Shown here piece after piece: positions 16,065 through 64,000 of a stretch of 64,000 nt of DNA. The translations under genes were made by a program, and so were the position numbers. The notes below the pieces were generated by a model. The model did not search any database. It had not been told where the DNA came from and saw only the letters and a program-made list of their open reading frames with translations. Location of the stretch: assembly GCA_030156615.1 (NCBI GenBank), contig JASGME010000002.1:7085-71084 (forward strand). The letters run 5' to 3'. The stretch is from Candidatus Woesearchaeota archaeon (GTDB lineage: Archaea; Nanobdellota; Nanobdellia; Woesearchaeales; UBA119). Position 1 is the stretch's first letter. Every line of letters starts with the position of its first letter.

Positions 16065-16072
16065 CTTTCCAC

Positions 16073-32689: not shown

Positions 32690-32737
32690 TCTTTATACAC
32701 CCCCTACTTTAATTTAAAAAAGCCAATTCCAATTCTA

Positions 32738-33361: not shown

Positions 33362-33608
33362 ATTGAGGTTCTTTTGGGTTACCAGTATGGTTTATAGTAT
33401 CCCCGTTACCTTCTGAGTGCAACTCTTATTTAAATATTTCTGTTTTACAGAACCACAATAAAAAGAGAATTTTTAGACTATTGAGCTTAAAGTATCATTA
33501 TAATAACACTAAAAAAGAATTTCAGTAAATAGACAAAATCAGTAATTCAATAAATATTGAATTTGAAGAGATAGAGCATCTCGTATCAAAAAATGAAGAA
33601 AAATAGAA

Positions 33609-44961: not shown

Positions 44962-45033
44962 TTTTATACCCCGCCGACCTATTTCACTTTAAAATATTAA
45001 AATTAAATAAAAAAATAAAAAAATAAAGGAGAT

Positions 45034-45795
45034 TTATTCAATCTCCAACCAAAAGTAATATGGAGTCACTTGATTATCTGCGTTGTGACCATTCTCTGCA
45101 ACTAATATCTGGAAATCATAGTTTTTTCCATCATAACCAGTAATGCCTTGTCTTTGTCCTTCAGTTTTATCTTCCAAAATAGCTGTAAAGATTAATGTTG
45201 AGTTGGAATCGCTGGCTAGAAGTACTGCCGGAAAATCTGTGCTTTGGCTTGCGTTGTTTATGAATGTATAAGCTGTTTGGCAGTTGTTTAAGGTAGTATA
45301 CCCAACATAAAACTCTGGATGATTAGTATAATTATAGGTATCGTTTATATCATCATAATCGCTTTCTATCATTCCGTAGAAGTTATACCAATTGGCCCTA
45401 TAATTAGGATCATCGCTAATAGGAGCGCAGTTGATATCTGTCCATGTAATAGTACTGTTTACTGAAGTAAAGACCTCTCCCTGAGGCTCGGCAACAGACC
45501 AATCATAAAACCTAAATCCAGATGCATCTGCTAAGATTATCTCGCCTGTAACATTTCCGAAGTAACCTTGCCATGATTGCGTCTGAGAAACACCAGTTAT
45601 ATCAAGTTCTGTTAGGTTACCTGCAATAGCATCCACTGAATCAGGGATATATAAGCTGTTGTTTGAATGCTCACTTCTTACAACATCAGCTTTTTCTGCT
45701 CCTAATGGAACATTCTGAGCTGTTCCTAAATAAACTGAAAAAAGCCCTATCAGAACAAAAGAAATTACAAAAACCGTTCTATTATCCATTTCCAT
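45034..45795 (-). CDS. Secreted protein, family B paralog (cassette B)
   Basis: Track ORF extends to 45960. The internal Met at 45795 ('MEMDNRTVFVISFVLIGLFSVYLGTAQN') gives a family-typical size (about 253 aa) and signal peptide. 'WQGYFGNVTGEIILADASGFRFYDWSV', C-terminal 'YYFWLEIE'. Confidence 0.6.
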   Translation of the reverse strand: MEMDNRTVFVISFVLIGLFSVYLGTAQNVPLGAEKADVVRSEHSNNSLYIPDSVDAIAGNLTELDITGVSQTQSWQGYFGNVTGEIILADASGFRFYDWSVAEPQGEVFTSVNSTITWTDINCAPISDDPNYRANWYNFYGMIESDYDDINDTYNYTNHPEFYVGYTTLNNCQTAYTFINNASQSTDFPAVLLASDSNSTLIFTAILEDKTEGQRQGITGYDGKNYDFQILVAENGHNADNQVTPYYFWLEIE

Positions 45796-46022
45796 AATAT
45801 CCACCTCTTTTATCTTGTTTTTGATTTTAAAAGTCAGTTTTTGAGGAATTCCAAGGAGCACATAGGCTCTCTCGACTTTTCTCAAAACTGCTTTAATCAA
45901 CAGATATACATAAAAGCACACCAATATATAAATTTTTCTGTTTTGGAGACTCATATACAAAATCTTCTCATAAAATTAAAAAGATATACAAGAGAAACTA
46001 AGAAAATAACTTTTGAAAAGGA

Positions 46023-47708: not shown

Positions 47709-47749
47709 TCAAATCATCTTCTCATATTATATTTTTGTTAATTTTTGCA

Positions 47750-48987: not shown

Positions 48988-49182
48988 TTGATTAGAATGG
49001 CTAAGATAGAAACTGTAAATGTAAGAATCCCAAGGAAGGTGGTGGATTGGTTAGATAGTTTAATCAGGGAAGGGCTCTACAAATCTCGTTCTGAAGCAAT
49101 ACGAGCCATTCTAAGAGAATATGTTTTAAGCGAAGAGAAAGCTGAAAAATCTGTTTCTTTGGAGGATGAGAGAAATGAATGA
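48988..49182 (+). CDS. Ribbon-helix-helix (CopG/NikR-N-like) DNA-binding protein
   Basis: 'KIETVNVRIPRKVVDWLDSLIREGLYKSRSEAIRAILREYV' is the canonical RHH strand-helix-helix. Confidence 0.55.
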   Translation: MIRMAKIETVNVRIPRKVVDWLDSLIREGLYKSRSEAIRAILREYVLSEEKAEKSVSLEDERNE

Positions 49183-49429
49183 TGTATTAGTTACGATTAG
49201 GATGCCCTCTCCTCTAGTTAAAAGACTTAATTCTTTATGTGAAAAAAACTTTTATATGGACCTTTCTGAGCAGATAAGAGATGTGCTAAACAAGAAGTTT
49301 CTGGAGCATGAAAATCAGAAATCTAATGCCACTAAGAAGAGCTCAAATAAAAAAGAACTAGCATACATGCTTGAAAGGAACGAACAATTACTGAGAGAAT
49401 TAAAAGAATCTTTGAGGAATTTAAAATGA
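49166..49429 (+). CDS. Second small RHH-like protein
   Basis: 'VLVTIRMPSPLVKRLNSLCEKNFYMDLSEQIRDVLNKKFLEH' has the same beta-alpha-alpha pattern. Overlaps both the upstream RHH gene and the downstream giant gene. Confidence 0.4.
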   Translation: MREMNDVLVTIRMPSPLVKRLNSLCEKNFYMDLSEQIRDVLNKKFLEHENQKSNATKKSSNKKELAYMLERNEQLLRELKESLRNLK

Positions 49430-52400
49430 GGAGAAAAATAAAGGGTTTTGGAAAGAGGAATCGTTTTGAAAGAAGGGCCCTTTTTGTTTTCCTTGCATTA
49501 ATTATCGGAATTAACATTTTTTCTGAGATTGATTTGGTTTATTGTGAAGAACCCCAACAAAATCAACAAAGTGAAACCACTCTTGAGCAAGAATCAACGG
49601 ATACAGAGATAAAGTGGACTGGAGAGTATGGCCCTTTGAACAATACAAATATAATCTATTCTCCTGAAGAAGAGATTGTCTTATGGAGCATATGGAACAT
49701 TTCGTCTGAAGGAGATATCGACATTCCAATTAGTCCTGATGGAAATATTTCAGATATAGAAGGGTTAACATGGAATTGTAGGAATGAAATCAATACTGAC
49801 AGCCAATACAACATTTCTTGTAATGCTACAGGAATACCCGCAGGGAACTATACTTGGAGTATATCATTAAACTATGAAAGCGAAGTATATTCTACTCCTT
49901 TATTTAACTTGGGGATTGAGAGAGCTGAGCCAAACATAACATTGAATGTCTCGAAGGAAACTATATATCAAAATGAAACCATAGAGATCTTTGCTAAGAA
50001 TTTTGAAGATGAAGGAACACTCTACCTTTTCAGAAACGGTTCTGAAATTAAGAATTCAACATATAAAATATCAATCAACCAAACATTTGAAGAGCCAGTA
50101 GAATACGAGATAAAATTAGTTTATAATGGCTCCGAGAACTATTTAGAAAAAACTAAAACTGAAACGATTAAGGTGCTACCCCTTGTATTCTCTCTCAATC
50201 TGACAAAAGGAAACTATTATAATTTGGGAGATGAAGTCGAATTTATTTTAGTAGCACCGAATGGATCTAATTCAAAGATAACTATTTACAGACATCTTGA
50301 ACAAAATATTGGATGGTTAAAAACCGAAATGTACATCAATATTGAGAATGAAACATATCCGAAAATAATATCCTTGGGATGCACGAATAAGACTGGTAAT
50401 TATTCAATAGATGCAGAAATAGAATATCTAAACATAACAAAAGAAATTACAAAAGAATACTTTGTATCAAATAGTATTGAAATTGAGATAGATGTTGAGG
50501 TAGAGGGGGATGAAATTGAAATAGATGAGGGAGAAGAGGTATTAATAGGAGAAGAAATAGAATTGGATGCTCTGGTTTCTGGAGGAATTCCTGGTTATAA
50601 TTATACATGGAGATTAGATAACGGGACCTCTCTGACAGGAAGGAGAATTGAACTGGTTTACAATGAGAAAGGAATACATGAAATCAACCTTACTGTAGAA
50701 GACGCAGAAAAAAACAGCAAAAGTAAGTCTATTACGATTGATGTAGATGAAGGGAAAGAGATAACTGTTAGGGTAAAAGATCCTGCTGGGAGGGCTATTG
50801 AATCAGCTTACGTTTCAATTGGAAATAGAAGGGATTATACAAACGAAAATGGAGAAGTAAAGATAAAAGCTCCACTAGGAGAACAAACACTAAGAGTAGA
50901 TAAGGGAAATTATGAAATGTATAGAAGGGTAATTAAAGTTGAAAATGAAGATACAATTGATGTTGTTCTCAAATTAGAAAAACATATTGCAAATAAAATC
51001 AACAGAATAATCCTATTTAATCCAAAAGACAATGTTACTCTGGACTCTAATGAAGTTACATTTTTAGCAGGTGTTAGCAGTTCTGAACCTGCCAAGTGCA
51101 GCGTTTTAATTAAATCAACGGAATCAGACTGGTTTGAAGAGATAAAAAAGTTTGAGGTTGAAGAAAGCTATGCTTTAGAGCTTAATAAGGAATTAGCAAA
51201 AGGAAAGTATCAATGGAAAATAGAATGCCGTATCAACAATCAATATTTTTCATCAGATATTGCGAGTTTTGAAGTTATAACCAGCAAAGAAACTAAAAAT
51301 CAGGAAACAACCATAAAAAGTGAAAAAATTGATGAGAATATTGACATCGGTTCCTTGAGAACTAAGATAGAGGCAGGATTTGAAAATCTTGATAACCTCA
51401 ACATGGAATCAAAAGAAGTAGCAGAAGTGCTTTCTGTTAAAAAAGAGCTTGAGAAGGCACTTCAAACATTTGAAAGAAAGATGCGGGACTTGAACAATCT
51501 ACAATATAGAGATGACTTAAGCAGCGATGAAAAGAAAGAAAAAGCAGAGGGATACCAAGAAGAGTTGAAGGAATTAGAGAAGAAAACAATATCTTTCGTT
51601 GAAGTAATAGACTCAGAAAACTATGTAAATTATCCAAAGAATGAGAAGCTTATCCAGATTGCCTCAACCTATCAAAATGAGAAAAGCATTTTAGGCAAAA
51701 TAGACGAAGATAAACTAAAAGAACTACAGAATAAGCTGTCTGTTGAAACTAAAGTAAGCCATGTTATGCTAAGCTTTCTCGACAATCAAACAAAGAATAT
51801 TACGCTTGTAGAAAAGACTATAACCTATTCGGGAGAAGAAGACAGTAGAATATTCATCTTAGAAGAGATATCAAAAGATTTTGCAGAATCTACAAATGCA
51901 ATTACATTCCTTGAAGAACAAGAAACAATTAAAAAAGATCCTTTAGTAAAATTTGAATTAGAAGAAAAAATAATCTATTACGCTGAGGGATTCAAGGATT
52001 TTGAGAGTATTAAAGAAAGCAACACAATCCTATTCTCAAACAATCTTATCTCTAATGATAAAAACAGAAATCTTATTACTGGAGCCTTCACCATGCAGGA
52101 AGTTGATTTTACCTCACCTATTTTTGGAATAGTATTTATTTCCATTGTAATTGTCATATACATACTCTTTTCAACAGAAGCAGGAGAAAAGATTATCAGT
52201 TTTGCAAGGATCTCCAAGAAGAGAAAGATGAATAAAATAAATTCTTTGATAAATGATTCCTTAAATTATATTGAAGAAGGCGATCTGAACAACGCCAATC
52301 TCGTTTTCAAAGAGATAAAACTCCTATATGAAAAGATGCCTCAACGGATTAAAAAGGAAGCATATGAAAGTGCAATAGGAGTATATGATAAGATAAACAA

Positions 52401-52575
52401 AGCTTACCTCTCAAAACTAATAGATCAGACAATTGATAAAATTAGGAAAGGTGAAAAGTTGAACAAAATAGAAATAATTGAAAGATTAGACCAAGCGTAC
52501 GATATACTTAATGAAGAAGATAAAAAAGAAATGCAAGATGAAGTTGAAAATCTGCTTAAGATAATCAACAAATAA
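49426..52575 (+). CDS. Giant single-pass surface protein (PKD-like and CarbopepD-reg-like domains, coiled coil, TM, cytoplasmic tail)
   Basis: N-terminal TM/signal 'ALFVFLALIIGINIF'. PKD-like 'GYNYTWRLDNGTSLTGRRIELVYNEKGIHEINLTVEDAEKN'. Cna-B/CarbopepD-like 'ITVRVKDPAGRAIESAYVSIGNRRDYTNENGEVKIKAPLGEQTLRV'. TM 'IFGIVFISIVIVIYILF' at about aa 890. About 140-aa helical tail. Confidence 0.7.
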   Translation: MRRKIKGFGKRNRFERRALFVFLALIIGINIFSEIDLVYCEEPQQNQQSETTLEQESTDTEIKWTGEYGPLNNTNIIYSPEEEIVLWSIWNISSEGDIDIPISPDGNISDIEGLTWNCRNEINTDSQYNISCNATGIPAGNYTWSISLNYESEVYSTPLFNLGIERAEPNITLNVSKETIYQNETIEIFAKNFEDEGTLYLFRNGSEIKNSTYKISINQTFEEPVEYEIKLVYNGSENYLEKTKTETIKVLPLVFSLNLTKGNYYNLGDEVEFILVAPNGSNSKITIYRHLEQNIGWLKTEMYINIENETYPKIISLGCTNKTGNYSIDAEIEYLNITKEITKEYFVSNSIEIEIDVEVEGDEIEIDEGEEVLIGEEIELDALVSGGIPGYNYTWRLDNGTSLTGRRIELVYNEKGIHEINLTVEDAEKNSKSKSITIDVDEGKEITVRVKDPAGRAIESAYVSIGNRRDYTNENGEVKIKAPLGEQTLRVDKGNYEMYRRVIKVENEDTIDVVLKLEKHIANKINRIILFNPKDNVTLDSNEVTFLAGVSSSEPAKCSVLIKSTESDWFEEIKKFEVEESYALELNKELAKGKYQWKIECRINNQYFSSDIASFEVITSKETKNQETTIKSEKIDENIDIGSLRTKIEAGFENLDNLNMESKEVAEVLSVKKELEKALQTFERKMRDLNNLQYRDDLSSDEKKEKAEGYQEELKELEKKTISFVEVIDSENYVNYPKNEKLIQIASTYQNEKSILGKIDEDKLKELQNKLSVETKVSHVMLSFLDNQTKNITLVEKTITYSGEEDSRIFILEEISKDFAESTNAITFLEEQETIKKDPLVKFELEEKIIYYAEGFKDFESIKESNTILFSNNLISNDKNRNLITGAFTMQEVDFTSPIFGIVFISIVIVIYILFSTEAGEKIISFARISKKRKMNKINSLINDSLNYIEEGDLNNANLVFKEIKLLYEKMPQRIKKEAYESAIGVYDKINKAYLSKLIDQTIDKIRKGEKLNKIEIIERLDQAYDILNEEDKKEMQDEVENLLKIINK

Positions 52576-52583
52576 AAAGGAAG

Positions 52584-55500
52584 ATGGAAAAAAGAAAGAG
52601 AAAGGATGTTTTAAACAAGGACATTGAACATATTATAGAAAGAGAACCTGCCTTAGAGAAATTTTTAGATGAAAGAAACAAAAGAAGAATTGAGAGTAAA
52701 AACAACTGGACAATTATTATCTTTCTTATAGTATTCGCAATAATTCTAATAACTGCCTCAATCCTGAAATATGAAGGGATTACCGGATTATTTGTATATC
52801 ATGAGGGCAAAGGCGGATATATATATAATATGAATTTAGAATATAGAAGACCAACCTTTAATTGGGTAGCTCTCTATGGAGCTGCATTCGGAGTCGGATT
52901 TTCACAGCCTTGGGAATTTACCTTTGAACCAGGAGAAACAGAAGAAGCCAATATGTTCTTTGAGTGTGTAGAACAAGGAAAGGATAACCTCTTGTTTGCA
53001 TCTACTGTGCCGCCTGAAGAGATAAATGTGCAGGAACTTGCTCCAATGTCAACATACGATATTGATGCATTTATAAACACAGACCCAAACAATTATGATT
53101 CTGCTTCAAACACATTTACCGAAACAATGAGTATAGAGATTGGCTCTACTGTTATAAACAACATTCCGACCGCTACAACTAAGGTTGGTGATGATACAGA
53201 AGAAGGAACATTTAAAACAGGTCTTTTGAAGGACACAAATGGGAATCCTGTTATAGTAACCATCCTTAATGATAAACTAGTCAAAGGATTCAACAACCGT
53301 TACTATAACTACCAATTTCTACTTCCAGTACATAACAATGAAACCACCAAATATTACATTTTCATTGATCCAACGAATGTTTGTATGTCAGGAACAGAAG
53401 AGCCTTATATAGAAGGAACAGTATATGGAACAGTTAATGACATAAGTGGGAATCCATTAGAGGATGTGCTAATTACCTCAGGCCCAAAATCAACGGTCAC
53501 TGATGAAAAAGGATTTTATAATCTGACAACAGCGGCGGGGGAGACTCTGATTATTGCGATAAAAGAGAGGTATCAGGTTTATGAGAGCAATATTACCATC
53601 CCAGAACTAAATTCTACAGAGCATAACATCATTATGGAACTTGAGACTGAAAAGCAGAAAGAGTATGAAACCCCGCCGATGGAACAAAATGTTGGACCTG
53701 ATTTTGGGCCTGGGGTTGGTCCTGGCGAGATCCCTTATGTAGAAGAGAGACCTTCAGAGATTGAGGGAAAGGAATTTTGGGTTTCTGTCAAAGAGATAAT
53801 CAAGAAGATTAGAGAAGATGAGTTTGCTCAGGAGGTCATTCACATACAGAATTTTAAGAATACTGGGATGCTACTTCAATTCAACATAACCGGTGACGTA
53901 AGAAAACTTGCAATGCTGGATAAAAAGGATATGTTTATCGGTGCAAAAGATTTAGACGATTTAACCATTACTTTCTTTGGCAATAGTTCTCCCGGGATAT
54001 ATAATGGAAGCCTAGATATTAGTGGCGAGATTAATCATAGTATACCAATAAAGATTGAGATTCTAGATAAAGATAAAACTCAAGTCCAAGCATTGCTGAT
54101 GGAAGTCCGTGTGCCTGATAAGAGTTATTATCCGAGTTCGCTTGTTAGATTTGAGACTGCACTTACGAATATGCTTACTGACCAGCAGTATCCAGTTGGA
54201 CTTACATATACTATACAGAATATTGATGGAAATGAAACATTATGGACTCATCAGACAAATGTATTCCTTAGAACCTCTATGTCTATCCTAAAGAACTACG
54301 AATTGCCTCCGAATGTATCCCCTGGAGAATACATCATACGGGTTAGCGCAAGTTATCTTGATTTAACGAGCAGTTCTACTGCTCTGTTCACAGTTACAGA
54401 ACCATTCTTACAACATCTTCTGTTTGGAAAGATAAGGGTTTGGCAGGCGTTAGTTGGTGGGATTGGCTTGGCTCTCTTGATATTTGGTATATTATTGATT
54501 AAGAAGGAGAGAGAATCTAAGAAGAAGTACAATCTCAAAGTTGAATATTCACAACTCCCAAAGCCCGGGACTGGCACGATTTTTGTTGGAAAGATTGCTG
54601 AGACTAACAACAAAGCCTATTTTGAGGTTGATAATTTTAAGACTCACACGATTGTTGCTGGTAGTACTGGTAGTGGTAAGAGCTTTGCAGCTCAAGGGCT
54701 TGTCGAAGAATTGCTGGAGAAGGGGGTATCAGTTATTGTCTTTGATCCAACTGCCCAATGGACTGGTTTCTTGAGGAAGCTTGAGGACAAGGGACTTCTC
54801 AACCTTTATCCAGGGTTTGGAATGAAACCTAATGAAGCGAAGTCTTTTAAGGGCAATATTAGAGAGATTACTGATCCAAGGGAAATTATAAACATCAAAG
54901 AGTACATGAAACCGGGGGAAATTCAGGTTTTCGCACTCCATAAGCTTGATCCAAAAGATATGGATATTTTTGTAGCAAACACGGTTAGAGAGGTTTTCCA
55001 CGAGAATTTTGATGAATCGCGGGAGCTAAGGCTTTGCCTTGTTTACGATGAGGTCCATAGATTGCTTTCAAAGTTTGGCGGTAGCGGTGAGGGCTTCATA
55101 CAGATTGAAAGGGCTTGCAGAGAGTTTAGGAAGTGGGGCATAGGTGTAATCCTTATCAGTCAGGTTTTGGCGGACTTTGTTGGACAGATTAAAGCTAATA
55201 TCAATACAGAAGTGCAAATGAGAACTAGGGATGAAGGAGATCTTGAAAGGATTAAAACAAAGTATGGAGATGATGTATTGAAGAGTTTGGTTAAAGCGAG
55301 TGTAGGAACTGGAATGGTTGAGAATGCTGCATACAACAGGGGCCGCCCTTACTTCATTACATTCAAGCCAATCAGACATTCGGTAGAGAGGCTATCCGAT
55401 GAGGAGATTGAAAAATATAATGAGTATAATGACATTATAGATCAGATGCAGTATGAACTGGAACAGCTTGAAAAACTTGGCCAAGATGTATTTGACTTGA

Positions 55501-56531
55501 AATTGGAGTTAAAGCTTGCTCTTGATAAAGTAAAGGCAGGCGGATTCAACATGGCACAGATTTACATCGATGGCTTGAAGCCGAGGATTGAGAAGCTCTG
55601 GAAGAAGCTTGGAAAGGAGCCAAAGAAGTTGGAGAGGAAGAAGGTTTCTGAAGAAGAGATGAAGGAAGAGTTAGAGAAGGCTAAGAAAGAAAGAGAAGAA
55701 GCTATGGCCAAAGAAAAGAATAAAGGAGACAAAGATGAGAAGAAGGAGGAATCTCCAATTGAACGGTTTAACGAAGATGTTCCACCGGATAAAATGCTGA
55801 AGCTCAATAATGGAATGCTTGTAGTTAACCCAAGAAACTTGTATGCAGAGATTGAAGCGATGAAAGAATCTGTATTCAAATCTCATGTGAATGAGAATAA
55901 GAACGACTTCGCCGAATGGTTTAGAGATGCGGTAGGAGATTATGAGCTCGCAGAACTCCTTGAATCAACCAGAGACAAGAAGAAGATTTTGGAATTGTTG
56001 GACAGGAGAAGCAAAGGAGAGAAACTGTCTGAAGTGGAAATGAAGAAAGAAGATGAGAAGGAAGCGGATATTGAGCAATCAGGTGATAAGACAAAAGAGA
56101 AAGTGGAGAAAGAGAGAGATGAAGAAGGAGATAAAGAGAAAAAAGACGATGAAGAAAACAAAGAAAGAAAGGAAGATAATGAAAGAAATATAAGCAAAGA
56201 TGATGAGAAAAAAGATAATGAAAAGGATGCCTCTTCCAACTCAAAAGGTGACATAGAACTTGATGAGATACTTAAAAAGAGGGCTCCAAAAGGCAAGGAA
56301 TTCAAGTTCTCAAACGGCAAAGAGGCATCTAATCTTGAGGAGTTAGTTGAAACTCTGAAGGATATGCCCGAAGAGGAATTCATTAGTTATGTTAATAAAG
56401 ATAAGCACGATTTCTCAAACTGGGTAAGATATTCTTTAGAGAATGATGAGCTCGCTGATAAGCTATCAAAGATTATGAGCAAGGACAAGCTCATAGAGGC
56501 GTTGTCAAATGGTAGAAGAAAAGAAGAGTGA
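52584..56531 (+). CDS. Bitopic membrane protein: N-terminal TM, about 560-aa ectodomain, second TM, cytoplasmic HerA/FtsK-superfamily (DUF87-like) P-loop ATPase, and 2x repeated C-terminal module
   Basis: TM1 'IIIFLIVFAIILITASIL'. Ectodomain with CarbopepD-reg-like 'YGTVNDISGNPLEDVLITSG...TDEKGFYNL'. TM2 'ALVGGIGLALLIFGILLI' (about nt 54438-54503). Walker A 'TIVAGSTGSGKSFAAQGLVEELLEKGVSVIVFDPTAQW' (HerA 'GxTGSGKS...DPhGEY' pattern). Walker B 'CLVYDEVHRLL'. Two tail modules ('LKLNNGMLVVNP...KNDFAEWFRDAVGDYELAELL' and 'FKFSNGKEASNLEEL...KHDFSNWVRYSLENDELADKL') separated by K/E/D-rich linkers. Confidence 0.75.
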   Translation: MEKRKRKDVLNKDIEHIIEREPALEKFLDERNKRRIESKNNWTIIIFLIVFAIILITASILKYEGITGLFVYHEGKGGYIYNMNLEYRRPTFNWVALYGAAFGVGFSQPWEFTFEPGETEEANMFFECVEQGKDNLLFASTVPPEEINVQELAPMSTYDIDAFINTDPNNYDSASNTFTETMSIEIGSTVINNIPTATTKVGDDTEEGTFKTGLLKDTNGNPVIVTILNDKLVKGFNNRYYNYQFLLPVHNNETTKYYIFIDPTNVCMSGTEEPYIEGTVYGTVNDISGNPLEDVLITSGPKSTVTDEKGFYNLTTAAGETLIIAIKERYQVYESNITIPELNSTEHNIIMELETEKQKEYETPPMEQNVGPDFGPGVGPGEIPYVEERPSEIEGKEFWVSVKEIIKKIREDEFAQEVIHIQNFKNTGMLLQFNITGDVRKLAMLDKKDMFIGAKDLDDLTITFFGNSSPGIYNGSLDISGEINHSIPIKIEILDKDKTQVQALLMEVRVPDKSYYPSSLVRFETALTNMLTDQQYPVGLTYTIQNIDGNETLWTHQTNVFLRTSMSILKNYELPPNVSPGEYIIRVSASYLDLTSSSTALFTVTEPFLQHLLFGKIRVWQALVGGIGLALLIFGILLIKKERESKKKYNLKVEYSQLPKPGTGTIFVGKIAETNNKAYFEVDNFKTHTIVAGSTGSGKSFAAQGLVEELLEKGVSVIVFDPTAQWTGFLRKLEDKGLLNLYPGFGMKPNEAKSFKGNIREITDPREIINIKEYMKPGEIQVFALHKLDPKDMDIFVANTVREVFHENFDESRELRLCLVYDEVHRLLSKFGGSGEGFIQIERACREFRKWGIGVILISQVLADFVGQIKANINTEVQMRTRDEGDLERIKTKYGDDVLKSLVKASVGTGMVENAAYNRGRPYFITFKPIRHSVERLSDEEIEKYNEYNDIIDQMQYELEQLEKLGQDVFDLKLELKLALDKVKAGGFNMAQIYIDGLKPRIEKLWKKLGKEPKKLERKKVSEEEMKEELEKAKKEREEAMAKEKNKGDKDEKKEESPIERFNEDVPPDKMLKLNNGMLVVNPRNLYAEIEAMKESVFKSHVNENKNDFAEWFRDAVGDYELAELLESTRDKKKILELLDRRSKGEKLSEVEMKKEDEKEADIEQSGDKTKEKVEKERDEEGDKEKKDDEENKERKEDNERNISKDDEKKDNEKDASSNSKGDIELDEILKKRAPKGKEFKFSNGKEASNLEELVETLKDMPEEEFISYVNKDKHDFSNWVRYSLENDELADKLSKIMSKDKLIEALSNGRRKEE

Positions 56532-57012
56532 GGAGGTTCAAAACTCGGAAGAGAATAAAGAAGATGATGGAGACAAGAAAGAAAAAAGAGATCTAGGAAA
56601 AATGGAGCTTGACAGAGTAATGAACATTTCGGAGAAATACTTAGAGAAAGTCAATAGAATGAAGATGCTTGCTGGAAAGGATTTACGAGAGAACATCGAA
56701 AAGGTAGAAGAGCTAAAGGAAAAACTTAGAGAGTTTGAAGGAGAGATTTCAGCAGCCAGAAAAACAGGAAAGAATATGTTCCATTCTTCATCCTTTTTAA
56801 AACTGGCTAAAGGAAAGATTGGAATACTTGAGATTGAATATAATGAAGAAGAGATAGATAAAATGATTGAGCTTATAAATGAGATTGGGGAGCAAATCAA
56901 GGAGGATAAAGATAGGAAGGTGTTTGATTTGAGGAGCGAAATAATGATGAAGGCAAAGGATAATATAAGCAAAGAGTCAAAAGAAGAATCACAAGAAAAG
57001 ACAGATGAATAA
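56509..57012 (+). CDS. Acidic coiled-coil protein (possible start at internal Met 56602)
   Basis: K/E-rich helical sequence with heptad character. 5' end overlaps the ATPase gene in another frame. No family recognised. Confidence 0.45.
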   Translation: MVEEKKSEEVQNSEENKEDDGDKKEKRDLGKMELDRVMNISEKYLEKVNRMKMLAGKDLRENIEKVEELKEKLREFEGEISAARKTGKNMFHSSSFLKLAKGKIGILEIEYNEEEIDKMIELINEIGEQIKEDKDRKVFDLRSEIMMKAKDNISKESKEESQEKTDE

Positions 57013-57065: not shown

Positions 57066-57953
57066 ATGTGGCCATTTAAAAGGAAACCGAGCGATGAGGA
57101 ACTGATTCAGCAGAATCTGGAAAATGAAAAAAAAAGAGTGGAGGTTGGAAATAGCTCTGAAGAGAACAACTTTGATGAGTCAAAGTTGGGTATAGAACTG
57201 ATAAAACTCAGTGCTAAGGTTGAAGGATTGAGTGAAGAAAGAAAAGCCATTAATGAAAGGTTTTCCAAGATAAATGAAGAGATTGGAGAGCTGAGAGGCA
57301 TTCTGACAGATACATCAAAAACTATTGCAAATCTTGAAACTGCTGCCACTAAGGCAATTGATCTTGTTGAATCAGTCAAACCCGAGACCCTGATGGTTGA
57401 AGTCAGAAAGGTTGATTCAAAGACAGAGGCTCTAAAGGCAAATATTGAAAGCAATGAGTCTCTTGCCAAGAATGTATTGGAGCAACTGAAACAGATGCAG
57501 AACAAGATAAATTTCTATAAGGGGGTTGAACAGGTAACTAAGCTTAATGATGAAATTAAGGATGAGTTGATTGAGATAAAGAAAAGAGAAGCCACAGTAG
57601 AGAGGCATTCTAATAAGGTTGAGTCTATGTTTGTTGAGGTTGAGAAGAGATTCTCTGAATTTGATAAGTTCAATGATGTTACTAAGAATCTTCAAAGGAG
57701 TTTTGACAAGCTTCAGGGTGATTTTGATAAGCTAAAGGTTGAGATAGACAAGAAAGCTGACAAGAATGAGATGGTTACATTCATCAAGAAATTCAACAAG
57801 TTTGAGAAGCACACTACTAATCTAATAAACATGCTTGACGACAAGACAAAATCAACGATGGAAGAATTAAAGAATAAGTTTTCAAAACTCTCCAAAGAGA
57901 TTAAAGAGGAGGTTGAAGATTCCCTTAAGAAGATAAAGGAAAATAGCAAATAG
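57066..57953 (+). CDS. Coiled-coil protein (295 aa)
   Basis: Continuous heptad-rich helical sequence ('...KTIANLETAATKAIDLVESV...'), cytoplasmic in character. Encoded between the ATPase and the giant adhesin. Confidence 0.5.
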   Translation: MWPFKRKPSDEELIQQNLENEKKRVEVGNSSEENNFDESKLGIELIKLSAKVEGLSEERKAINERFSKINEEIGELRGILTDTSKTIANLETAATKAIDLVESVKPETLMVEVRKVDSKTEALKANIESNESLAKNVLEQLKQMQNKINFYKGVEQVTKLNDEIKDELIEIKKREATVERHSNKVESMFVEVEKRFSEFDKFNDVTKNLQRSFDKLQGDFDKLKVEIDKKADKNEMVTFIKKFNKFEKHTTNLINMLDDKTKSTMEELKNKFSKLSKEIKEEVEDSLKKIKENSK

Positions 57954-57968
57954 AAATAAGGATTTCAG

Positions 57969-60900
57969 ATGCAAAAAAGAAAAATTATTGGAGGTTTGTT
58001 AGTTTTAATCATATTCCTGATTTTAGGTAATCAGGGCTCTTTTTCTGAGATTCAGGATTCTGCTGTTTCTTTTGCCCCTCTTGAAAAGGAGGCATATGGA
58101 ATTAATGAAAGTATAGAGATTGAGCTACTTCCTAAAGAGATTAATGGAATTGATGTTTCCAACGAATATGATTTGGTGATGGTTAAAGAAGATCTGAGAA
58201 GCAAGTATTTTGGTGAGCTGTTTTTTCCTCTTGTGCTAAGTTTTTCTGAGCCGGGAGAATATATAATGTTTTTAATTAATAATCAAGGGGAAGAGATTAG
58301 TCGTCTGAAATTTGTTGTTTCTGATGATAAAGATAGCAATGTGACGAAAAAAGAGGCAGATAATGATAGGTATCCTGTGCTTAAGATAAGCTCAAACATG
58401 CTTGCTAAGGGAGAAGAATTGATAATTTCGCTTTTGGAAGGCGATATTACCGATTCCTCATTGGATCTATATATCACCCATGAAAATAAGAATTTCAAGT
58501 TGTTAGAGCTTTCCAGAGAGGTTAGATTTACTCCTTCTAAAGAGGGAGAATATCGAGTTCAGCTCAGGGATGATGAAAAGGTTGTTGATGAGATGATTTT
58601 TTATGTTGAAGAAAAAAGCAATAACGAAAAAAGCGAGAATAAAGAGATGTTGCCTAAAAGAGAAACTGGAGGAGAATTTAACCTTTCTTCTTTGAATCAA
58701 GAAAAAAGGCTTGCAACTATTCCAGTTAGGGCAAAGAATCACAAAGGGCAAACGAAAGAGCTTATTGGAGTCCTAGGGAGCTCTTTTCGAGGAGAATTTG
58801 TTGAAGTTGTTAATGCAACAAACAATATAAAAAGAATCAGAGTCTATGATCTGAAGCTGAACAACATTAATGAACTGAAGATAGAGGATATTGATAATAA
58901 AGAGGTTTGGGTAAACCGGGAGAAGAGCGTACAATCCTTTGCAATTGATCCACGGGCTTTGAATTTCTCATTTGCTCAGATTGAACTTGAGGCAAAAGGA
59001 ACTGCATTGTATAAATGCGAGGAGTATGATTTCGATACACAAGAATGTTTTGGTGGCTGGAAGAAAGAAAGGAACATTGTTCCTGGAGAGAATTATACTA
59101 TTGTGCTTACCCCTGAGGATCCTTTGTACAGCGAAATAAACACTTCTGTCGGATGCAGCTGCTCTGATTCGGCAAATCGGCAGACTAGCGGAACACTCTC
59201 CTGTTCTACTTTCTGCCCTTTTAACATAGACATCCCTGAAGATGCAATGAGTTTTTTCCTTCAAGAGATTTATTATGACATTACTGTTACTGTGAATAAC
59301 GATAGATGTACAATGACAAATGCTCAGCAGAGAGGATATTTTGACCATGATCAAAATCAAGGGGATGGTGATGAAGCTATTATAGGGAGCAGTTCTTATA
59401 CTTCAACCACATCAACAACATGGACAAATTCAAGCATTGCACAATCAGGTTCTTATTCTTTCACTAACCTTGATTGCAGCAATTGGCCTAATTATTGCAC
59501 TTATTATGTATACATTAATTCAAGCATGGATTTTACTTCGCCATTTGGGTTACTTAGGAGAAGTCCTAGTATGACTATTTCTGTTGATGCTATAAATTAT
59601 ACTATCAACTATACAGAAGCAGGCTCCTTCTCAGTATCCCTTGATTCGCCATTTCACCTATACAGGACGAATGCAACTATACAAGAATTTACATATACCC
59701 CAAGCAATGAAGATTATTCTATCAGCAACTGTTCTATATATACTAATGAAACAAGCTGGAGCGTGAAGAATACTACTTATTCTATCACAAACGGAAGTCA
59801 GAACACAATAACAGCAGAGTTCAATAATGAAGGACATTATGCCTGGAATGTGAGGTGCTGGGATTCTAATGGGAATAACGCTACTTCTGCAACAAACAGA
59901 ACTATTATTATCGATAGGACTGGTCCTGAGATTGCTCTTGTTTCTCCAGCAAACGAAGAAACATATACAGATTCAAATGTTGTTTCCTTTACCTATAATG
60001 TGAGCGATGATTCAGATATTGATAATTGCACTTTATACATAAATGGAATTGCTAAGAAAACAGACAGTTCTATATCAAAGGGCCAAAACCAGATTATATA
60101 TTATAACCTTAACAATGGAGATTATACTTGGTCCATTGGCTGCATTGATGAAGCAGGGAATTTTAATCAAAGCAGCTCACGAGATCTCACTGTAGCAGCG
60201 ATCAAGCCAATTTATTATGGAAGCTGGTATGAATCTTCTTCCAATGATTGCACAATATTCCCTTGTGAAATTTCTTTACAGCAGCAGAACGATGGAACCC
60301 AGAATTCTATTTCTGGAACAATACCTGCTTCTGCTTCTGAGCTGATAATCAAAGCAGAATCTCCTTTTATGGGAGCGAACGGTGCAGAAATATCTACTTC
60401 AAATGTACTTTTCAGCACTTATTTTCAAACATCTAATAGCAGAGTAGAAGTAAGCTGGTGGTTATATATCCTGAACAGCTCTGATGGAAAAGAGTTGATA
60501 TGCTCAAATACATTAGGAACAGCAAGTTCTTCTGGAGCAGCTACAACAGGGAGTTGTACACCTTCTAGCGACAAGAGACTTCTTAGCACTGACAGGTTAT
60601 ACTATGAAATAGAACTTACAAACACATTTCCCATATTTTCAAGGAATTTCAATCATCTTATTGATCATGTCTCAAGCTTTGTAAATATTACTGGTTTTAC
60701 CCAGTTGGGAAATCTTGAAGCAACAAAAACCTCTCCATCTTCTACATTATACATTAATCAAGGTGAATCTTTTATATTATCATGTGATGTGAATTGCAGT
60801 GCTGGAAGTTGTCTTAATACAAATGTAACAGCAGAGACCAATGAATCGGGAAGCTGGAACGTCATATCTTCTTCAGGGATTGTATCGCTTAATGGAAGCG

Positions 60901-63900
60901 AGAACAATCCTCATGTCATGGGCAATATCTTCAACACTTCCAATTCAACCTCTTTCAGCTTGAATGGCTCTTCTCCGGGCTCTACTTATGTTAGGTGTGC
61001 TGCTCAAAGTAAGTATTCTACTTCTTATACAGAACCTGTTAAGATAAATGTAATAAGTACTGAAGCACCAGAGGTAAATCTTATTTCTCCTGAGAATGAA
61101 AGCTGGATAAACAGTTCAAGCGTTATCCTTAAATATATCCCATCATCATATAACGAGATTGCCAACTGCAGTCTATATATTGATGGAATTTTTAATCAGA
61201 CCAATTCCAGCCAGATAAACAATGGAGGAACTAATACTTTCACCATCTCATCACTTGAGCAAAAAGAATACAATTGGAGCGTCTCCTGTACTGATACTTA
61301 TTCAAGAACAGGGAATTCTTCTACATGGAAGTTCAATGTAGATTATAATAAGCCTTATATGATTGAGCTTAACGAACCTATTGATGAGTTTAGCACTACC
61401 TCTCCAGATATTGAATTTAACTGGACCGCATATGATAATATTGCTTCTAACATGAGCTGTGATTTAAGAATTAACGGATCTGTCAACAAATCCATTATTG
61501 CATATAATGGAAGCCCTGCAAATACCACAATTTATGATTTAGATATTGGTCATTATGTCTGGGATGTTGTATGCATGGATTGGGCAAATAATTCAAATAC
61601 CTCAGAAACAAGAAGCTTTAATATCTCTGATGAACCTCCTTATGTCTCTTTATATTCCCCTGAGAATGAAAGCGGGACAAACGAGACAACTGTTGAATTT
61701 ACATATAATGCTTATGATAATTTTGCTCTGGCGGAATGTAAATTGTATATCAATGGGGAATATAATCAAAGCAATCAAACTGAGCTGATAAATGGATTGA
61801 ACAATTTTAGTGTTAGTTTTGAGGAAGGAATATATAATTGGAGCGTTAGTTGTTACGATAACAAAGACAATAGTGCTTCAACAGGAAATGCAACCCTTTA
61901 TGTTGATTTCACTAAACCAGAGATTGGCCTTCAGGCTCCTGCTCCTGAAGCCTATTTCACTGATTCGAAGATTAGTTTTTCTTATACACCAACTGACAAC
62001 TATCAAGAGTTAAATTGCACTTTGTATGTTGACGGAATTGAGAATGATCATTCGGAAGTAATCAGCGGAAGCCAGTACGATGTTACCTTGACTGGATATA
62101 AAGACGGAGTTCATTATTGGAATGTGAGCTGCACGGATATTGGAGGAAATATCAATTATTCTGAGACAAGGAATTTTACTATAAACCAAACCCCTATTGT
62201 TGAGCCCATATCTCCATTAAATAATACACATACGAATCAGGACAATGTAATCATAGAATATAATGTAAGCGATAATGATGAGATTGGGAGTTGCAGCTTG
62301 TTCATTAATGGAAGTTTTAATCAGACTAATTCTACAGCGATATCAAAGGATCAGGTAAACAACTTTACACTTTCTTTCCCTTCAGAAGGAGAATATAACT
62401 GGTCAGTGGAATGCAACGATAGTGGGACATATAGCAATTCTAATGAATCTTATGTTTGGAATTTTATCGTAGATAGGACGGGTCCAAAAGTCTCATTAAA
62501 CCATCCTGAGAATGACTATACAATTAACACTCCGCTCTACACATTTAATTGGACAGTTGAGGATAATTTCGCTACTGGGCTTCTCTGTAACATTACTATA
62601 AACGATAGCGTTAATGGGAGCAATATTGAAAGCAATAATGGAGCTCCTACCTTGTTTAATGTGACTGGACTAAGGAACGGAGATTTTAATTGGAGTGTTA
62701 CCTGCGCAGACAATGCAACTAATACTAATACCTCTGAGACTTGGAATTTTACAGTACTTCTTATTCCTAGGGTTGACCTTACAAGCCCAGAAGACGGAGA
62801 CGGTGATTTATTTCATGATGTAACATTTAAGTATATACCAAGTTTGGGGAGCGAGAATTTTATCAATTGCAGCCTTTGGTTAAATGGAGAGGAAAACGAA
62901 ACAAGTTATGATATAACTGCTAATGCAGAGAATAACTTTACTGTTAATCTGCCTGATGGAAAATATGAATGGAATGTAAAATGTTATGACAGCAACAATC
63001 TTGATGGAATGGCTAAAGAGAACTGGACTTATTATGTGGATTCAGAAGTGCCTTATGATATAGAATTGTTATATCCTGAAAATGATTCTATTGTTGAAAG
63101 AAACAATGTATCCTTCAAGTTTATACCAAAGGATAAGGTTTCAGATGAGTTAAGCTGTGATATTTATCTAACTGATGAGGAATTCACTTATAAAATAGGG
63201 TCTGATTTGAATGCAACCAATGGAAGTGAATATGTCTATTATTCTGTTTTAGAAGATGGAAGTTATAATTGGAGCGTGGACTGCACTGATAAGGCAGGAA
63301 ACTTTAATGTATCTGATACCTTTTACTTTGATGTTTTGGCGCCACCAAATGTTACTTTAGTTGCACCTGATAATGAAACCTGGTTCAATGAAACAGATGT
63401 GAATCTTACTTATTTTCCTTCAGATGACATACTAATAACTGGCTGTGCTCTATACATAAATGGGAGCTATGAGAAGTCGGCATCTTTTGTATTGAACAAC
63501 CAGAACAATACCTTTGAGCTAAACGATATTTCACAGGGGGAATATCTATGGAGTGTAAAATGTTATGACAGCGATGGAAACAGTTTTATGCCTGTGAATA
63601 AGACTTTCTATGTGGATAATCAGACTCCTAAGATTTTCCTAAATCATCCAACTAATTCAGAAGAGCTGGACTCAAGCTCTGTAACGTTTAATTGGACTGT
63701 AAATGATAATCTTGCAAAAAAGCTTAGTTGCGACCTCTTGATTAATAATAGTCCCAAAGAAACGAATATAATGAGCAACAATGGAGAGCCGACTAACTTT
63801 ACCATTGAAGGAATGGATGACGGAGATTATAACTGGAGCATTGTATGTAGGGACAATGCTCAGAATTCAAATCAAAGCAGCACTGAGGACTTTTCAGTGC

Positions 63901-64000
63901 AGGAGCCACCAAAGATAAGCTTAGGAGATCCTGTTGAAAATAATAGAAACAATTCTGTTAATATGACTCTGTATTTTACGGCAACAGACAACTCCGGTGA
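57969..64000 (+). CDS. Giant repeat adhesin-like surface protein, 3' partial (>2010 aa, continues beyond window)
   Basis: ATG at 57969, preceded by in-frame TAA at 57957. N-terminal signal 'IIGGLLVLIIFLILG'. Traced codon by codon with no in-frame stop to the window end. Not in the supplied track because it has no stop codon. Confidence 0.75.
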   Translation, partial: MQKRKIIGGLLVLIIFLILGNQGSFSEIQDSAVSFAPLEKEAYGINESIEIELLPKEINGIDVSNEYDLVMVKEDLRSKYFGELFFPLVLSFSEPGEYIMFLINNQGEEISRLKFVVSDDKDSNVTKKEADNDRYPVLKISSNMLAKGEELIISLLEGDITDSSLDLYITHENKNFKLLELSREVRFTPSKEGEYRVQLRDDEKVVDEMIFYVEEKSNNEKSENKEMLPKRETGGEFNLSSLNQEKRLATIPVRAKNHKGQTKELIGVLGSSFRGEFVEVVNATNNIKRIRVYDLKLNNINELKIEDIDNKEVWVNREKSVQSFAIDPRALNFSFAQIELEAKGTALYKCEEYDFDTQECFGGWKKERNIVPGENYTIVLTPEDPLYSEINTSVGCSCSDSANRQTSGTLSCSTFCPFNIDIPEDAMSFFLQEIYYDITVTVNNDRCTMTNAQQRGYFDHDQNQGDGDEAIIGSSSYTSTTSTTWTNSSIAQSGSYSFTNLDCSNWPNYCTYYVYINSSMDFTSPFGLLRRSPSMTISVDAINYTINYTEAGSFSVSLDSPFHLYRTNATIQEFTYTPSNEDYSISNCSIYTNETSWSVKNTTYSITNGSQNTITAEFNNEGHYAWNVRCWDSNGNNATSATNRTIIIDRTGPEIALVSPANEETYTDSNVVSFTYNVSDDSDIDNCTLYINGIAKKTDSSISKGQNQIIYYNLNNGDYTWSIGCIDEAGNFNQSSSRDLTVAAIKPIYYGSWYESSSNDCTIFPCEISLQQQNDGTQNSISGTIPASASELIIKAESPFMGANGAEISTSNVLFSTYFQTSNSRVEVSWWLYILNSSDGKELICSNTLGTASSSGAATTGSCTPSSDKRLLSTDRLYYEIELTNTFPIFSRNFNHLIDHVSSFVNITGFTQLGNLEATKTSPSSTLYINQGESFILSCDVNCSAGSCLNTNVTAETNESGSWNVISSSGIVSLNGSENNPHVMGNIFNTSNSTSFSLNGSSPGSTYVRCAAQSKYSTSYTEPVKINVISTEAPEVNLISPENESWINSSSVILKYIPSSYNEIANCSLYIDGIFNQTNSSQINNGGTNTFTISSLEQKEYNWSVSCTDTYSRTGNSSTWKFNVDYNKPYMIELNEPIDEFSTTSPDIEFNWTAYDNIASNMSCDLRINGSVNKSIIAYNGSPANTTIYDLDIGHYVWDVVCMDWANNSNTSETRSFNISDEPPYVSLYSPENESGTNETTVEFTYNAYDNFALAECKLYINGEYNQSNQTELINGLNNFSVSFEEGIYNWSVSCYDNKDNSASTGNATLYVDFTKPEIGLQAPAPEAYFTDSKISFSYTPTDNYQELNCTLYVDGIENDHSEVISGSQYDVTLTGYKDGVHYWNVSCTDIGGNINYSETRNFTINQTPIVEPISPLNNTHTNQDNVIIEYNVSDNDEIGSCSLFINGSFNQTNSTAISKDQVNNFTLSFPSEGEYNWSVECNDSGTYSNSNESYVWNFIVDRTGPKVSLNHPENDYTINTPLYTFNWTVEDNFATGLLCNITINDSVNGSNIESNNGAPTLFNVTGLRNGDFNWSVTCADNATNTNTSETWNFTVLLIPRVDLTSPEDGDGDLFHDVTFKYIPSLGSENFINCSLWLNGEENETSYDITANAENNFTVNLPDGKYEWNVKCYDSNNLDGMAKENWTYYVDSEVPYDIELLYPENDSIVERNNVSFKFIPKDKVSDELSCDIYLTDEEFTYKIGSDLNATNGSEYVYYSVLEDGSYNWSVDCTDKAGNFNVSDTFYFDVLAPPNVTLVAPDNETWFNETDVNLTYFPSDDILITGCALYINGSYEKSASFVLNNQNNTFELNDISQGEYLWSVKCYDSDGNSFMPVNKTFYVDNQTPKIFLNHPTNSEELDSSSVTFNWTVNDNLAKKLSCDLLINNSPKETNIMSNNGEPTNFTIEGMDDGDYNWSIVCRDNAQNSNQSSTEDFSVQEPPKISLGDPVENNRNNSVNMTLYFTATDNSG
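61065..64000 (+). repeat. At least 11 tandem ~285-290-nt (~95-aa) protein-coding repeats inside the giant adhesin gene
   Basis: Repeat units begin near 61065, 61350, 61630, 61915, 62190, 62480, 62770, 63050, 63340, 63620 and 63905. Each has 'P(E/D)N..(T/S)...', 'NC(S/T)L(Y/W)ING..N(Q/E)(T/S)' and '(Y/F)NWSV.C.D..(G/N)N'. Two earlier, more divergent copies lie near 59,900-60,190. Confidence 0.75.

Follow-up and report, generated by a model that had tools for sequence, protein, structure and literature searches.

The gene at 52584..56531 of the window, by which we mean the whole 64-kb stretch of DNA analysed (coordinates are on the + strand unless stated otherwise), comes from a tiny symbiotic archaeon (DPANN/Woesearchaeota) and encodes a protein of 1315 aa in which an ectodomain, a transmembrane (TM) part and a HerA-clade ATPase are fused. 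The protein belongs to a large family of P-loop ATPases of the HerA clade that are anchored in the membrane and as yet uncharacterised, and its architecture, family assignment and operon, taken together, are near-certain. From the N-terminus it consists of a basic region, TM1, an all-beta ectodomain, TM2, a compact ATPase, a helical hairpin and a tail. The domain fusion itself, that is TM1, an ectodomain of about 560 residues, TM2 and a HerA-type ATPase in one open reading frame, had been proposed in a preliminary description and is real; the interpretation given there is partly supported as a whole. DPANN archaea, whose tiny genomes encode little biosynthesis, live in attachment to other cells, their hosts, as sources of nucleotides, lipids or DNA. 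In this family one polypeptide combines an adhesin-like outside that varies with a translocase-type motor inside that is conserved, and the family is a concrete candidate for the host-interaction or transfer machinery of DPANN. The 1315-aa protein may be part of the machinery for host interaction in these cells.

The membrane parts were assigned by hydropathy and by reading the sequence. The basic cytoplasmic N-terminal region (residues 1-42; 52584..52709) contains 13 K/R, and the alignment of the orthologs showed a conserved motif upstream of TM1. TM1, a signal anchor with a hydropathy peak of 3.08, covers residues 43-62 (52710..52769). An N-terminal hydrophobic segment was also seen in the orthologs and was present in 70 of the 91 complete representatives. 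In many family members TM1 may be cleaved off as a signal peptide, which would leave one TM helix per subunit. TM2 (residues 620-640; 54441..54503) is followed by the basic stretch KKERESKKK, and 112 of 118 representatives have a hydrophobic segment 80-135 aa upstream of FDPTAQW. Only these two hydrophobic segments were found in the hydropathy profile of the 1315-aa protein.

The cytoplasmic part starts with a compact RecA-like ATPase core of the HerA clade at residues about 660-935 (54561..55388). Its Walker A motif GSTGSGKS (693-700, with K699) and its Walker B motif LVYDE (819-823, with the DE that includes E823) had been read earlier as HerA/DUF87-type, and this was borne out by the Pfam match to DUF87 with 45.7 bits at a cut-off of 23.2. 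The core also contains D721, the arginine finger R849 and the sensor Q860. In Sulfolobus HerA, K154, D176, E356 and R381 are essential and R381 is the trans-acting arginine finger (PMC4351679). These four residues align to K699, D721, E823 and R849, all of which are invariant in 45 homologs; both the catalytic glutamate and the arginine finger of HerA are thus conserved. R142 of HerA was also considered as the arginine finger and was dropped, since it aligns to T687 and the trans-acting finger is R381 (PMC4351679), conserved as R849. In the structure model the RecA-like fold was nearest to HerA and VirB4, and DndH-C was the second-best fold match.

The core is followed by a conserved helical hairpin at residues about 939-1000 (55398..55583; 'DVFDLKLELKLALDKVKAGNFNM'; helices at 299-358 of the model) with near-invariant alignment columns. 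The tail is rich in K/E and carries two DUF5752-like repeats, at residues about 1066-1140 (55779..56003), where the repeat is conserved in orthologs, and at about 1237-1310 (56292..56513). Both stretches were matched by Pfam PF19027 (E 4.1e-8, 33.3 bits at a cut-off of 23). DUF5752 is not mentioned in the literature searched.

The ectodomain comprises the 557 residues 63-619 and is all-beta and rich in sequons. Its distal module (residues about 74-262; 52803..53369) had no Pfam match and is homologous to small secreted proteins, here called A-type. The hhalign comparison between the two gave a probability of 99.4% and an E-value of 1.3e-21, and an HMM built from the small A-type proteins alone picked up the distal module in about 55 orthologs. 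Two conserved cysteines, C128 and C267, were assigned to this module from the ortholog alignment. The CarbopepD-reg-like module of the preliminary description was recovered as a transthyretin-like CarboxypepD_reg domain at residues 279-351 (53418..53636). It is followed by a disordered Pro/Gly-rich linker (residues about 356-394; 53649..53765; pLDDT < 50 in the model), which varies in length among the aligned orthologs. Next to the membrane lie two Ig-like/PapD-like beta-sandwich domains (residues about 398-604; 53775..54395), which form the ectodomain core that the medium forms of about 780 aa have as well. The folds of the ectodomain had no likeness to any known channel or DNA-binding fold.

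Four paralogous A-type proteins are encoded in the window, all on the - strand. Two of them, at 45034-45960 and 44182-44961 (44182..45960), are homologous to the distal module and may be extracellular partners, and two more, at 33609-34337 and 31958-32689 (31958..34337), are separated by an unrelated ORF. The A-type proteins had no match in NCBIfam or the PDB. A likeness of the C-terminus of the giant protein of locus L001 to the A-type module, noticed by eye, is taken as unproven, with a pairwise E-value of 0.01 and an HMM that was silent at 1e-3.

The operon has a conserved order of two ribbon-helix-helix (RHH) proteins, a PKD surface protein, the ATPase gene, a small protein, a 295-aa coiled-coil protein and a giant Ig-rich protein. 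The first gene (48988..49182) encodes a CopG-type RHH DNA-binding protein of 64 aa (Pfam RHH_1, E 7.5e-8), and about 55 loci have a homolog in this place. The second, RHH-like protein of 87 aa (49166..49429) overlaps both neighbours and is conserved in position in many loci; its RHH_1 match (E 1.1e-3) is just below the cut-off. The PKD surface protein of 1049 aa (49426..52575; Pfam PKD E 8e-9, CarboxypepD_reg E 1.5e-7) had no match in NCBIfam or the PDB. As read from its sequence, it has an N-terminal hydrophobic segment and, behind a C-terminal TM, about 130 aa of helical cytoplasmic tail, and in almost every long-form locus its ortholog immediately precedes the ATPase gene.

Downstream of the ATPase gene, a cytoplasmic protein of 167 aa is encoded at 56509..57012. 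Only its C-terminal 70 aa or so recur in its counterparts of 240-350 aa at other loci (blastp 31-36% over residues 80-150), which carry DUF5752 repeats (E 2.6e-12 for the counterpart in L004). The coiled-coil protein of 295 aa (57066..57953) is the most conserved partner, tightly linked to the ATPase gene, and was found behind it in about 50 loci at 41-88% identity. Homologs also follow divergent ATPase members, with 39% in L008 and 38% (E 5e-42) after the 6253-aa member in L088. Searches with the 295-aa protein against Pfam, NCBIfam, PADLOC and PDB profiles returned coiled-coil noise only (SMC, Rad50, PspA, haemagglutinin, ZorA). The last gene (57969..64000) runs past the end of the window and encodes a giant Ig-repeat surface protein of > 2010 aa with a signal peptide (Pfam Big_13, Big_7), whose orthologs at the same position have 2464 to 7158 aa. 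In this ATPase family the coiled-coil partner is always present beside the ATPase gene, and giant surface proteins usually are.

The synteny of the operon is stable over dozens of genomes; it is chromosomal and lies beside an ABC transporter. No polytopic channel protein (CedA/VirB6-like), pilin, relaxase or nuclease was found in the operon, and tRNA and Rfam searches of the whole window gave no match. A mobile element was rejected because mobility genes are absent and the chromosomal synteny is stable.

Homologs were gathered by domain-wise searches, as a query with the whole protein was swamped by low-complexity words. The ATPase was present in at least 583 species-level genomes, mostly Woesearchaeota/Nanoarchaeota, and other DPANN labels also occurred among the protein relatives. 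The labels 'Methanosarcinales', 'Saccharibacteria' and 'Nitrospirae' on some MAG contigs probably reflect binning or labelling problems and were left out of the distribution. The same long form as the 1315-aa protein was found in about 55 of the 79 best loci. When 1.84 billion representatives were searched, 365 relatives were obtained at E<=1e-30, and their TM-ATPase unit lies at a distance of 47 to 5,614 residues from the N-terminus. Variation in the family is concentrated in the stalk, and the cytoplasmic motor is highly conserved. The members P0076, P0134 and P0100 retain the ATPase with the ectodomain almost or wholly absent, and some genomes have two or three paralogs, each with a different ectodomain. 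The literature searched, which omits many subscription journals, covers the nearby topics of soluble HerA, Ced and a midcell HerA-domain protein in Haloferax, and no description of this ATPase-ectodomain family was found in it.

Our preferred reading, put forward tentatively and by analogy, is that the protein could be a ring motor that moves a polymer across the membrane and forms the base of a surface apparatus for adhesion or transfer. Since the trans-acting arginine finger is conserved, we infer that the ATPase would assemble as a ring beneath the membrane, like HerA, VirB4, CedB/CedD, TrwB and FtsK. The TM helices would cluster about the axis of the ring and the stalks would form a projecting bundle, whose distal modules might dock onto the giant adhesin or the secreted A-type proteins. 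The energy of ATP hydrolysis would drive the polymer across the membrane at a site of cell-cell contact, with the 295-aa coiled-coil protein and the DUF5752 repeats as putative cytoplasmic adaptors. As the operon encodes no polytopic channel protein, any conduit would be made from at most 12 TM helices, or there would be none. The favoured polymer would be DNA, since most close relatives that have been characterised take part in DNA handling or DNA transfer. The preference for DNA is one of analogy, and VirB4 and EccC, whose folds are similarly close, work on proteins or pili. What we infer here is the ring, the docking and, most of all, the substrate, and a role in host contact is suggested by the biology of DPANN and by the adhesin-like neighbours.

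Among the alternatives, a motor that handles proteins is the least unlikely. The ATPase would then power the export, the membrane extraction or the assembly of surface proteins into a filament or lattice, with the fused ectodomain as a membrane-anchored base subunit and the giant, PKD or A-type proteins as cargo. Such a role would have analogues in VirB4, which acts in pilus biogenesis, and in EssC/EccC of type VII secretion. However, the surface and A-type proteins bear ordinary N-terminal signal sequences and presumably use Sec, a polymerisation of the A-type proteins is without support, and the protein has a single ATPase domain and no EssC-type FHA or substrate-recognition domains. If the role were structural, in the assembly or anchoring of a surface layer, this would be the first case of a HerA-type ATPase linked directly with a structure outside the cell.

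A bolder form of the ring motor that we prefer is a self-contained 'adhesin-translocase', which we regard as improbable. Six copies would form the motor ring, a TM pore and an outer tube or bundle with a length, about 50 to 5,600 residues of Ig repeats, tuned to span the envelopes of the given host, and DNA or other macromolecules would be pumped to or from the host. If true, the adhesin-translocase would be a new contact-dependent machine for intercellular transport, distinct from T4SS, Ced/Ted and T7SS.

Slightly more doubtful still is a receptor-type transducer, the reading of the preliminary description, in which the binding of a ligand or host by the ectodomain would switch the ATPase via TM2 to act on a cytoplasmic target, with no transport. 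A variable ectodomain on a conserved cytoplasmic module is the typical pattern of a receptor, and the DUF5752 or TPR tails and the coiled-coil partner could be output adaptors. However, we know of no member of the HerA/FtsK superfamily that is a signalling switch, Ig-repeat ectodomains of 3,000-5,600 aa resemble adhesins or stalks more than sensors, and the three members mentioned above keep the ATPase with almost no or no ectodomain.

It is quite unlikely that the protein is an FtsK-like translocase for the chromosome or for division in archaea without FtsK, with the ectodomain serving for envelope attachment. The topology is analogous to that of FtsK, a motif 'IKANI.T', which FtsK may share, is readable in the 1315-aa protein, and ftsZ lies about 6 kb away at one divergent locus. 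The Haloferax protein HVO_1301, which could be a parallel by virtue of its HerA domain, localises to midcell (bioRxiv 10.64898/2026.07.16.738847). Against this, the conserved neighbours are genes for surface proteins, with none for division or segregation, the two or three paralogs of some genomes, which differ in their ectodomains, fit a housekeeping role in segregation poorly, and the Pfam match to FtsK_SpoIIIE stayed under the cut-off and covered the P-loop only. A defence system, in which a membrane HerA-type ATPase would sense viral infection at the envelope as in HerA-Sir2, HerA-DUF4297, DndFGH or MADS, is very improbable and was rejected, because the matches to PADLOC mad8 (E 2.6e-18, spanning almost the full profile), to several HerA defence models and to DndH-C follow from the shared ATPase fold, whereas the operon has no nuclease, Sir2, methylase or other effector, its other genes gave only coiled-coil noise with the PADLOC models, and its synteny beside the ABC transporter is stable in dozens of genomes, unlike that of defence islands.

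Compared with known systems, the ATPase is closest to HerA and VirB4. HerA is the archaeal and bacterial translocase of HerA-NurA DNA end resection (Pfam DUF87, PDB 4d2i) and has an N-terminal HAS-barrel, for which the 1315-aa protein, with about 25 residues between TM2 and the first core strand, has no counterpart. The sequence identity to HerA is about 20% and the NCBIfam HerA_Thermprot match reached 29.6 bits at a cut-off of 800. In contrast to HerA, the 1315-aa protein is membrane-anchored and has a large ectodomain, the extra C-terminal hairpin, a K/E linker and the DUF5752 repeats. The operon neighbours had no match to NurA, Mre11 or Rad50 beyond coiled-coil noise.

The crenarchaeal Ced DNA-import ATPases CedB and CedD, with a TM, a VirB4-like N-terminal domain and a HerA/VirB4-like ATPase, form homo-oligomers (PMC11868833). 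They are likewise archaeal, membrane-anchored and of the HerA clade, and they act at cell-cell contacts. However, their cytoplasmic VirB4-like domain is absent from the 1315-aa protein, they have no ectodomain, and Ced includes a CedA/VirB6-like channel and a pilin, neither of which is in the operon; the NCBIfam CedD match was weak (33.1 bits at a cut-off of 600) and confined to the P-loop region.

The T4CP-like topology of the preliminary description stands in so far as two N-terminal TM helices precede a cytoplasmic ATPase, as in TrwB/VirD4/TraD, although TM1 of the 1315-aa protein could be a cleaved signal peptide. The loop, however, has tens of residues in T4CPs and 557 here, the all-alpha domain of TrwB is missing (the Pfam match to TrwB is limited to residues 683-727), the ATPase is nearer to HerA and VirB4 than to T4CPs, and neither the window nor the syntenic loci contained relaxase or T4SS genes. 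VirB4 has an N-domain that is absent here, EssC/EccC have three ATPase domains and an FHA domain where the 1315-aa protein has one ATPase domain and no FHA, and no cognate VirB4 or type VII secretion genes lie near the ATPase gene. FtsK/SpoIIIE have four N-terminal TM helices and a gamma domain, which the 1315-aa protein does not have, and the Pfam FtsK_SpoIIIE match (23.0 bits at a cut-off of 24) covers residues 662-712 only. The best profile match over the whole compact core was mad8 of MADS (PADLOC PDLC04140), at the E-value given above and over positions 3-286 of 314. Methylase and nuclease genes are absent from the operon, and the likeness is to a profile from a defence-system library whose length roughly equals that of the ATPase core. 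The match indicates that compact HerA-like ATPases without a barrel exist elsewhere. With the present family, the known architectures of the FtsK-HerA superfamily now extend to ectodomains of up to about 5,600 residues.

The ATPase fusion, a protein of 1315 residues, is encoded at 52584..56531 on the plus strand, exactly where the preliminary description had placed it. A hydropathy scan found only two strongly hydrophobic stretches, at residues 43-62 (TM1) and 620-640 (TM2), which agrees with the two transmembrane segments proposed there, and both quoted ATPase motifs were found in the reading frame. Pfam DUF87 ('Helicase HerA, central domain') exceeded its gathering score (E 1.1e-11), and DUF5752 was above cut-off in the tail. 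TM2 is followed by KKERESKKK, consistent with the positive-inside rule. The region between the TMs had been described as sequon-rich, and N-glycosylation sequons are indeed about 6 times denser there than elsewhere (1.80 versus 0.31 per 100 residues in 19 orthologs). The window contains an AglB/STT3 oligosaccharyltransferase gene, and the ortholog alignment shows exactly two conserved ectodomain cysteines. A two-TM topology with the intervening part outside the cell is thus supported by the basic stretch, the sequons, AglB/STT3 and the cysteine pair. TM1 may be cleaved.

When the ATPase core was compared with known folds, the highest score was obtained with Sulfolobus HerA (4d2i, 26.0), followed by the DndH C-domain (24.5), VirB4 (22.6), bacterial HerA proteins (18-22), TrwB (18.5), FtsK (16.9) and EccC (16.9). 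In sequence alignments, K699, D721, E823, R849 and Q860 correspond to HerA K154, D176, E356, R381 and Q392. Mutagenesis of Sulfolobus HerA showed that K154, D176, E356 and R381 are all essential, and the study describes R381 as a trans-acting arginine finger with a salt bridge to E356 (PMC4351679). Across 45 aligned, diverse homologs the equivalents of these four residues never vary. The proposed HerA-type ATPase therefore keeps both its catalytic glutamate and its arginine finger, and since these are retained, the ATPase is most likely active and oligomeric. Among full-length profile matches, the compact MADS protein mad8 ranked first (E 2.6e-18); with the curated HerA, CedD, TraC and TraD models the scores were far under the cut-offs.

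The model of the ectodomain (pLDDT 78) shows four folded domains and a linker. The distal domain comprises about 170 residues; then come a CarboxypepD_reg domain with a transthyretin-like fold, a Pro/Gly linker that is disordered, and a pair of Ig-like domains next to the membrane. The CarbopepD-reg-like module claimed before is placed by Pfam at residues 279-351 with a sub-threshold score. Pfam recognises nothing in the distal domain, which is clearly homologous to small proteins with Sec signals, the A-type family (hhalign E 1.3e-21, probability 99.4%). With an HMM derived solely from the small A-type proteins, this domain was recovered in about 55 orthologous fusions, along with 25 further small paralogs, several adjoining the ATPase operon. 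The A-type proteins are unannotated, 240-310 residues long, end in ...YYF[YF]xE[IL] and had no match in Pfam, NCBIfam or PDB. Four are encoded on the minus strand of the window at 45034-45960, 44182-44961, 33609-34337 and 31958-32689; in other genomes, more copies adjoin the ATPase operon (e.g. at loci L025, 7314-8069, L040, L048 and L084). A second unannotated secreted family, B-type, is sequon-rich, about 295 residues long and ends in ...PPNPFGxCxGTIRFTATAP. Its copies, at 43256-44152 (-) and 30983-31885 (-) in the window and 2193-3068 in L001, all lie directly downstream of A-type genes in recurrent A-A-B cassettes, whose products may be the subunit set of one surface structure.

The preliminary description regarded the fusion as unusual. 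The fusion is real, but it is not a one-off, as its design recurs across a family and about 55 of the best 79 loci encode the same long form (1150-1580 residues, TM1 at about 10-50, TM2 at about 580-635). A medium form of about 780 residues with only the two proximal Ig-like domains occurs in about 12 of these 79, giant forms occur in some, and some genomes have two paralogs. With the ATPase module alone as query, hundreds of proteins were found under the labels Woese-, Pace-, Nano-, Aenigm-, Micr- and Altiarchaeota, and a motif scan with one genome per species detected the ATPase in at least 583 genomes. Close homologs carry the label Candidatus Woesearchaeota. Some ortholog contigs are labelled 'uncultured Methanosarcinales', 'Saccharibacteria', 'Patescibacteria', 'Nitrospirae' or 'Leptospiraceae' (L009, L012, L018, L026 and others; proteins P0055, P0068, P0122), which probably reflects binning or naming errors in public MAGs rather than a true distribution.

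When 1.84 billion representatives were searched exhaustively with phmmer, 365 relatives reached E<=1e-30. Of the 118 representatives having the motif FDPTAQW, 112 show a hydrophobic segment 80-135 residues upstream of it. In 91 apparently complete proteins this segment sits anywhere between residues 47 and 5614 (median 836); more than 2000 residues precede it in 25, and an N-terminal hydrophobic segment is also present in 70. In giant members, CarboxypepD_reg, NPCBM_assoc or DUF2341 domains occur in arrays. A few members lack the ectodomain and keep a single TM, or are without any TM. The conserved unit is therefore TM, compact HerA-like ATPase and hairpin, with the ectodomain as the evolving part, and the window protein is a mid-sized member. 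In some genomes, two paralogous fusions with very different ectodomains lie side by side, as in L008 (1-7054 and 8001-9200), L002 (5734-8247 and 10001-14407) and L069 (9152-11491 and 14947-19110); in one pair a 3395-residue DUF2341/NPCBM_assoc form adjoins a 399-residue form without TM. Such pairs hint at hetero-oligomers or modular swapping.

About 50 loci share one gene order: an RHH protein, an RHH-like protein, a PKD surface protein (about 1000 residues, C-terminal TM, helical cytoplasmic tail), the ATPase fusion, a variable small protein (DUF5752 repeats in other genomes), a 295-residue coiled-coil protein and a giant Ig-repeat surface protein. These genes abut or overlap in the window. 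The giant gene (57969-64000, +) encodes a signal peptide and Big_13/Big_7/Ig repeats over more than 2010 residues and extends past the window end; its orthologs have 2464-7158 residues. The coiled-coil protein, which matched no known family beyond coiled-coil noise, is the tightest partner. Its gene is also found behind divergent members in L002 and L008 and, with 38% identity (E 5e-42), behind the 6253-residue member in L088. The C-terminal tails of the ATPases vary between DUF5752 and TPR repeats. In a metabolically richer archaeon, a gene for a 500-residue TPR protein comes after a short one-TM form (P0076; L006/L007), and in P0090 TPR repeats are fused behind a DUF5752-like repeat. TPR and DUF5752 appear to be interchangeable tail modules, and this variation suggests adaptor functions.

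The window comes from the chromosome of a low-GC archaeon and encodes aRF1, RFC and STT3. Between 30000 and 48000 most reading frames have an N-terminal hydrophobic segment and no family match, among them 39816-42989 (1057 residues), 37716-39488 (590), 35150-36850 (566) and 36851-37576 (241). Together with the ATPase operon, this region forms an island of surface proteins that are uncharacterised and take up about half of the window. ABC-2 transporters are encoded as two paralogous pairs of ATPase and permease at 46023-48733 (-) and 14043-17038 (-); the former is divergent and upstream of the ATPase operon, as also in L004. In this archaeal genome, the reading frame at 7024-7833 (-) strongly matches Lgt, the prolipoprotein diacylglyceryl transferase (Pfam LGT E 1.9e-75), which is normally a bacterial enzyme of lipoprotein maturation.

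A trans-acting arginine finger implies that the ATPase subunits would form a ring. With 1-2 TM helices per subunit as tethers, its axis would be surrounded by 6-12 helices, as it is in coupling proteins and in FtsK. A channel through these helices is disfavoured by the lack of a polytopic partner gene in the operon and by the possible cleavage of TM1. The stalks would protrude as a group, with A-type proteins or the giant adhesin as possible docking partners. To our knowledge, every relative that has been characterised is a polymer translocase or a motor for secretion or assembly. For this reason we prefer a motor located at the foot of an apparatus for surface adhesion or transfer, and its likeliest substrate would be DNA. 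CedB/CedD, which serve archaeal DNA import, are a precedent (PMC11868833). The whole chain of ring, docking, basal motor and DNA substrate is proposed tentatively, as somewhat short of probable. Its main rival is a protein-handling or assembly role like that of VirB4 or EssC. A receptor coupling external binding to the ATPase, as suggested in the preliminary description, is less likely, and so are an FtsK-like role in division and a role in defence.

The protein belongs to the HerA clade of the FtsK-HerA superfamily and shows the testable features of that clade. It is not HerA proper, because the roughly 25 residues between TM2 and the first core strand leave no room for the HAS barrel and, unlike in HerA-NurA, there is no NurA neighbour. 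Membership of HerA-NurA, T4CP, Ced, FtsK/SpoIIIE, T7SS and the known HerA defence systems was rejected in each case, as one or more of the features that define them are lacking. The searchable literature, itself incomplete in coverage, yielded no account of the family, DUF5752 or the operon. Compared with these systems, we rate the family as a known motor class in an apparently new, widespread architecture and context, and with its putative function it is of real interest for DPANN cell biology.
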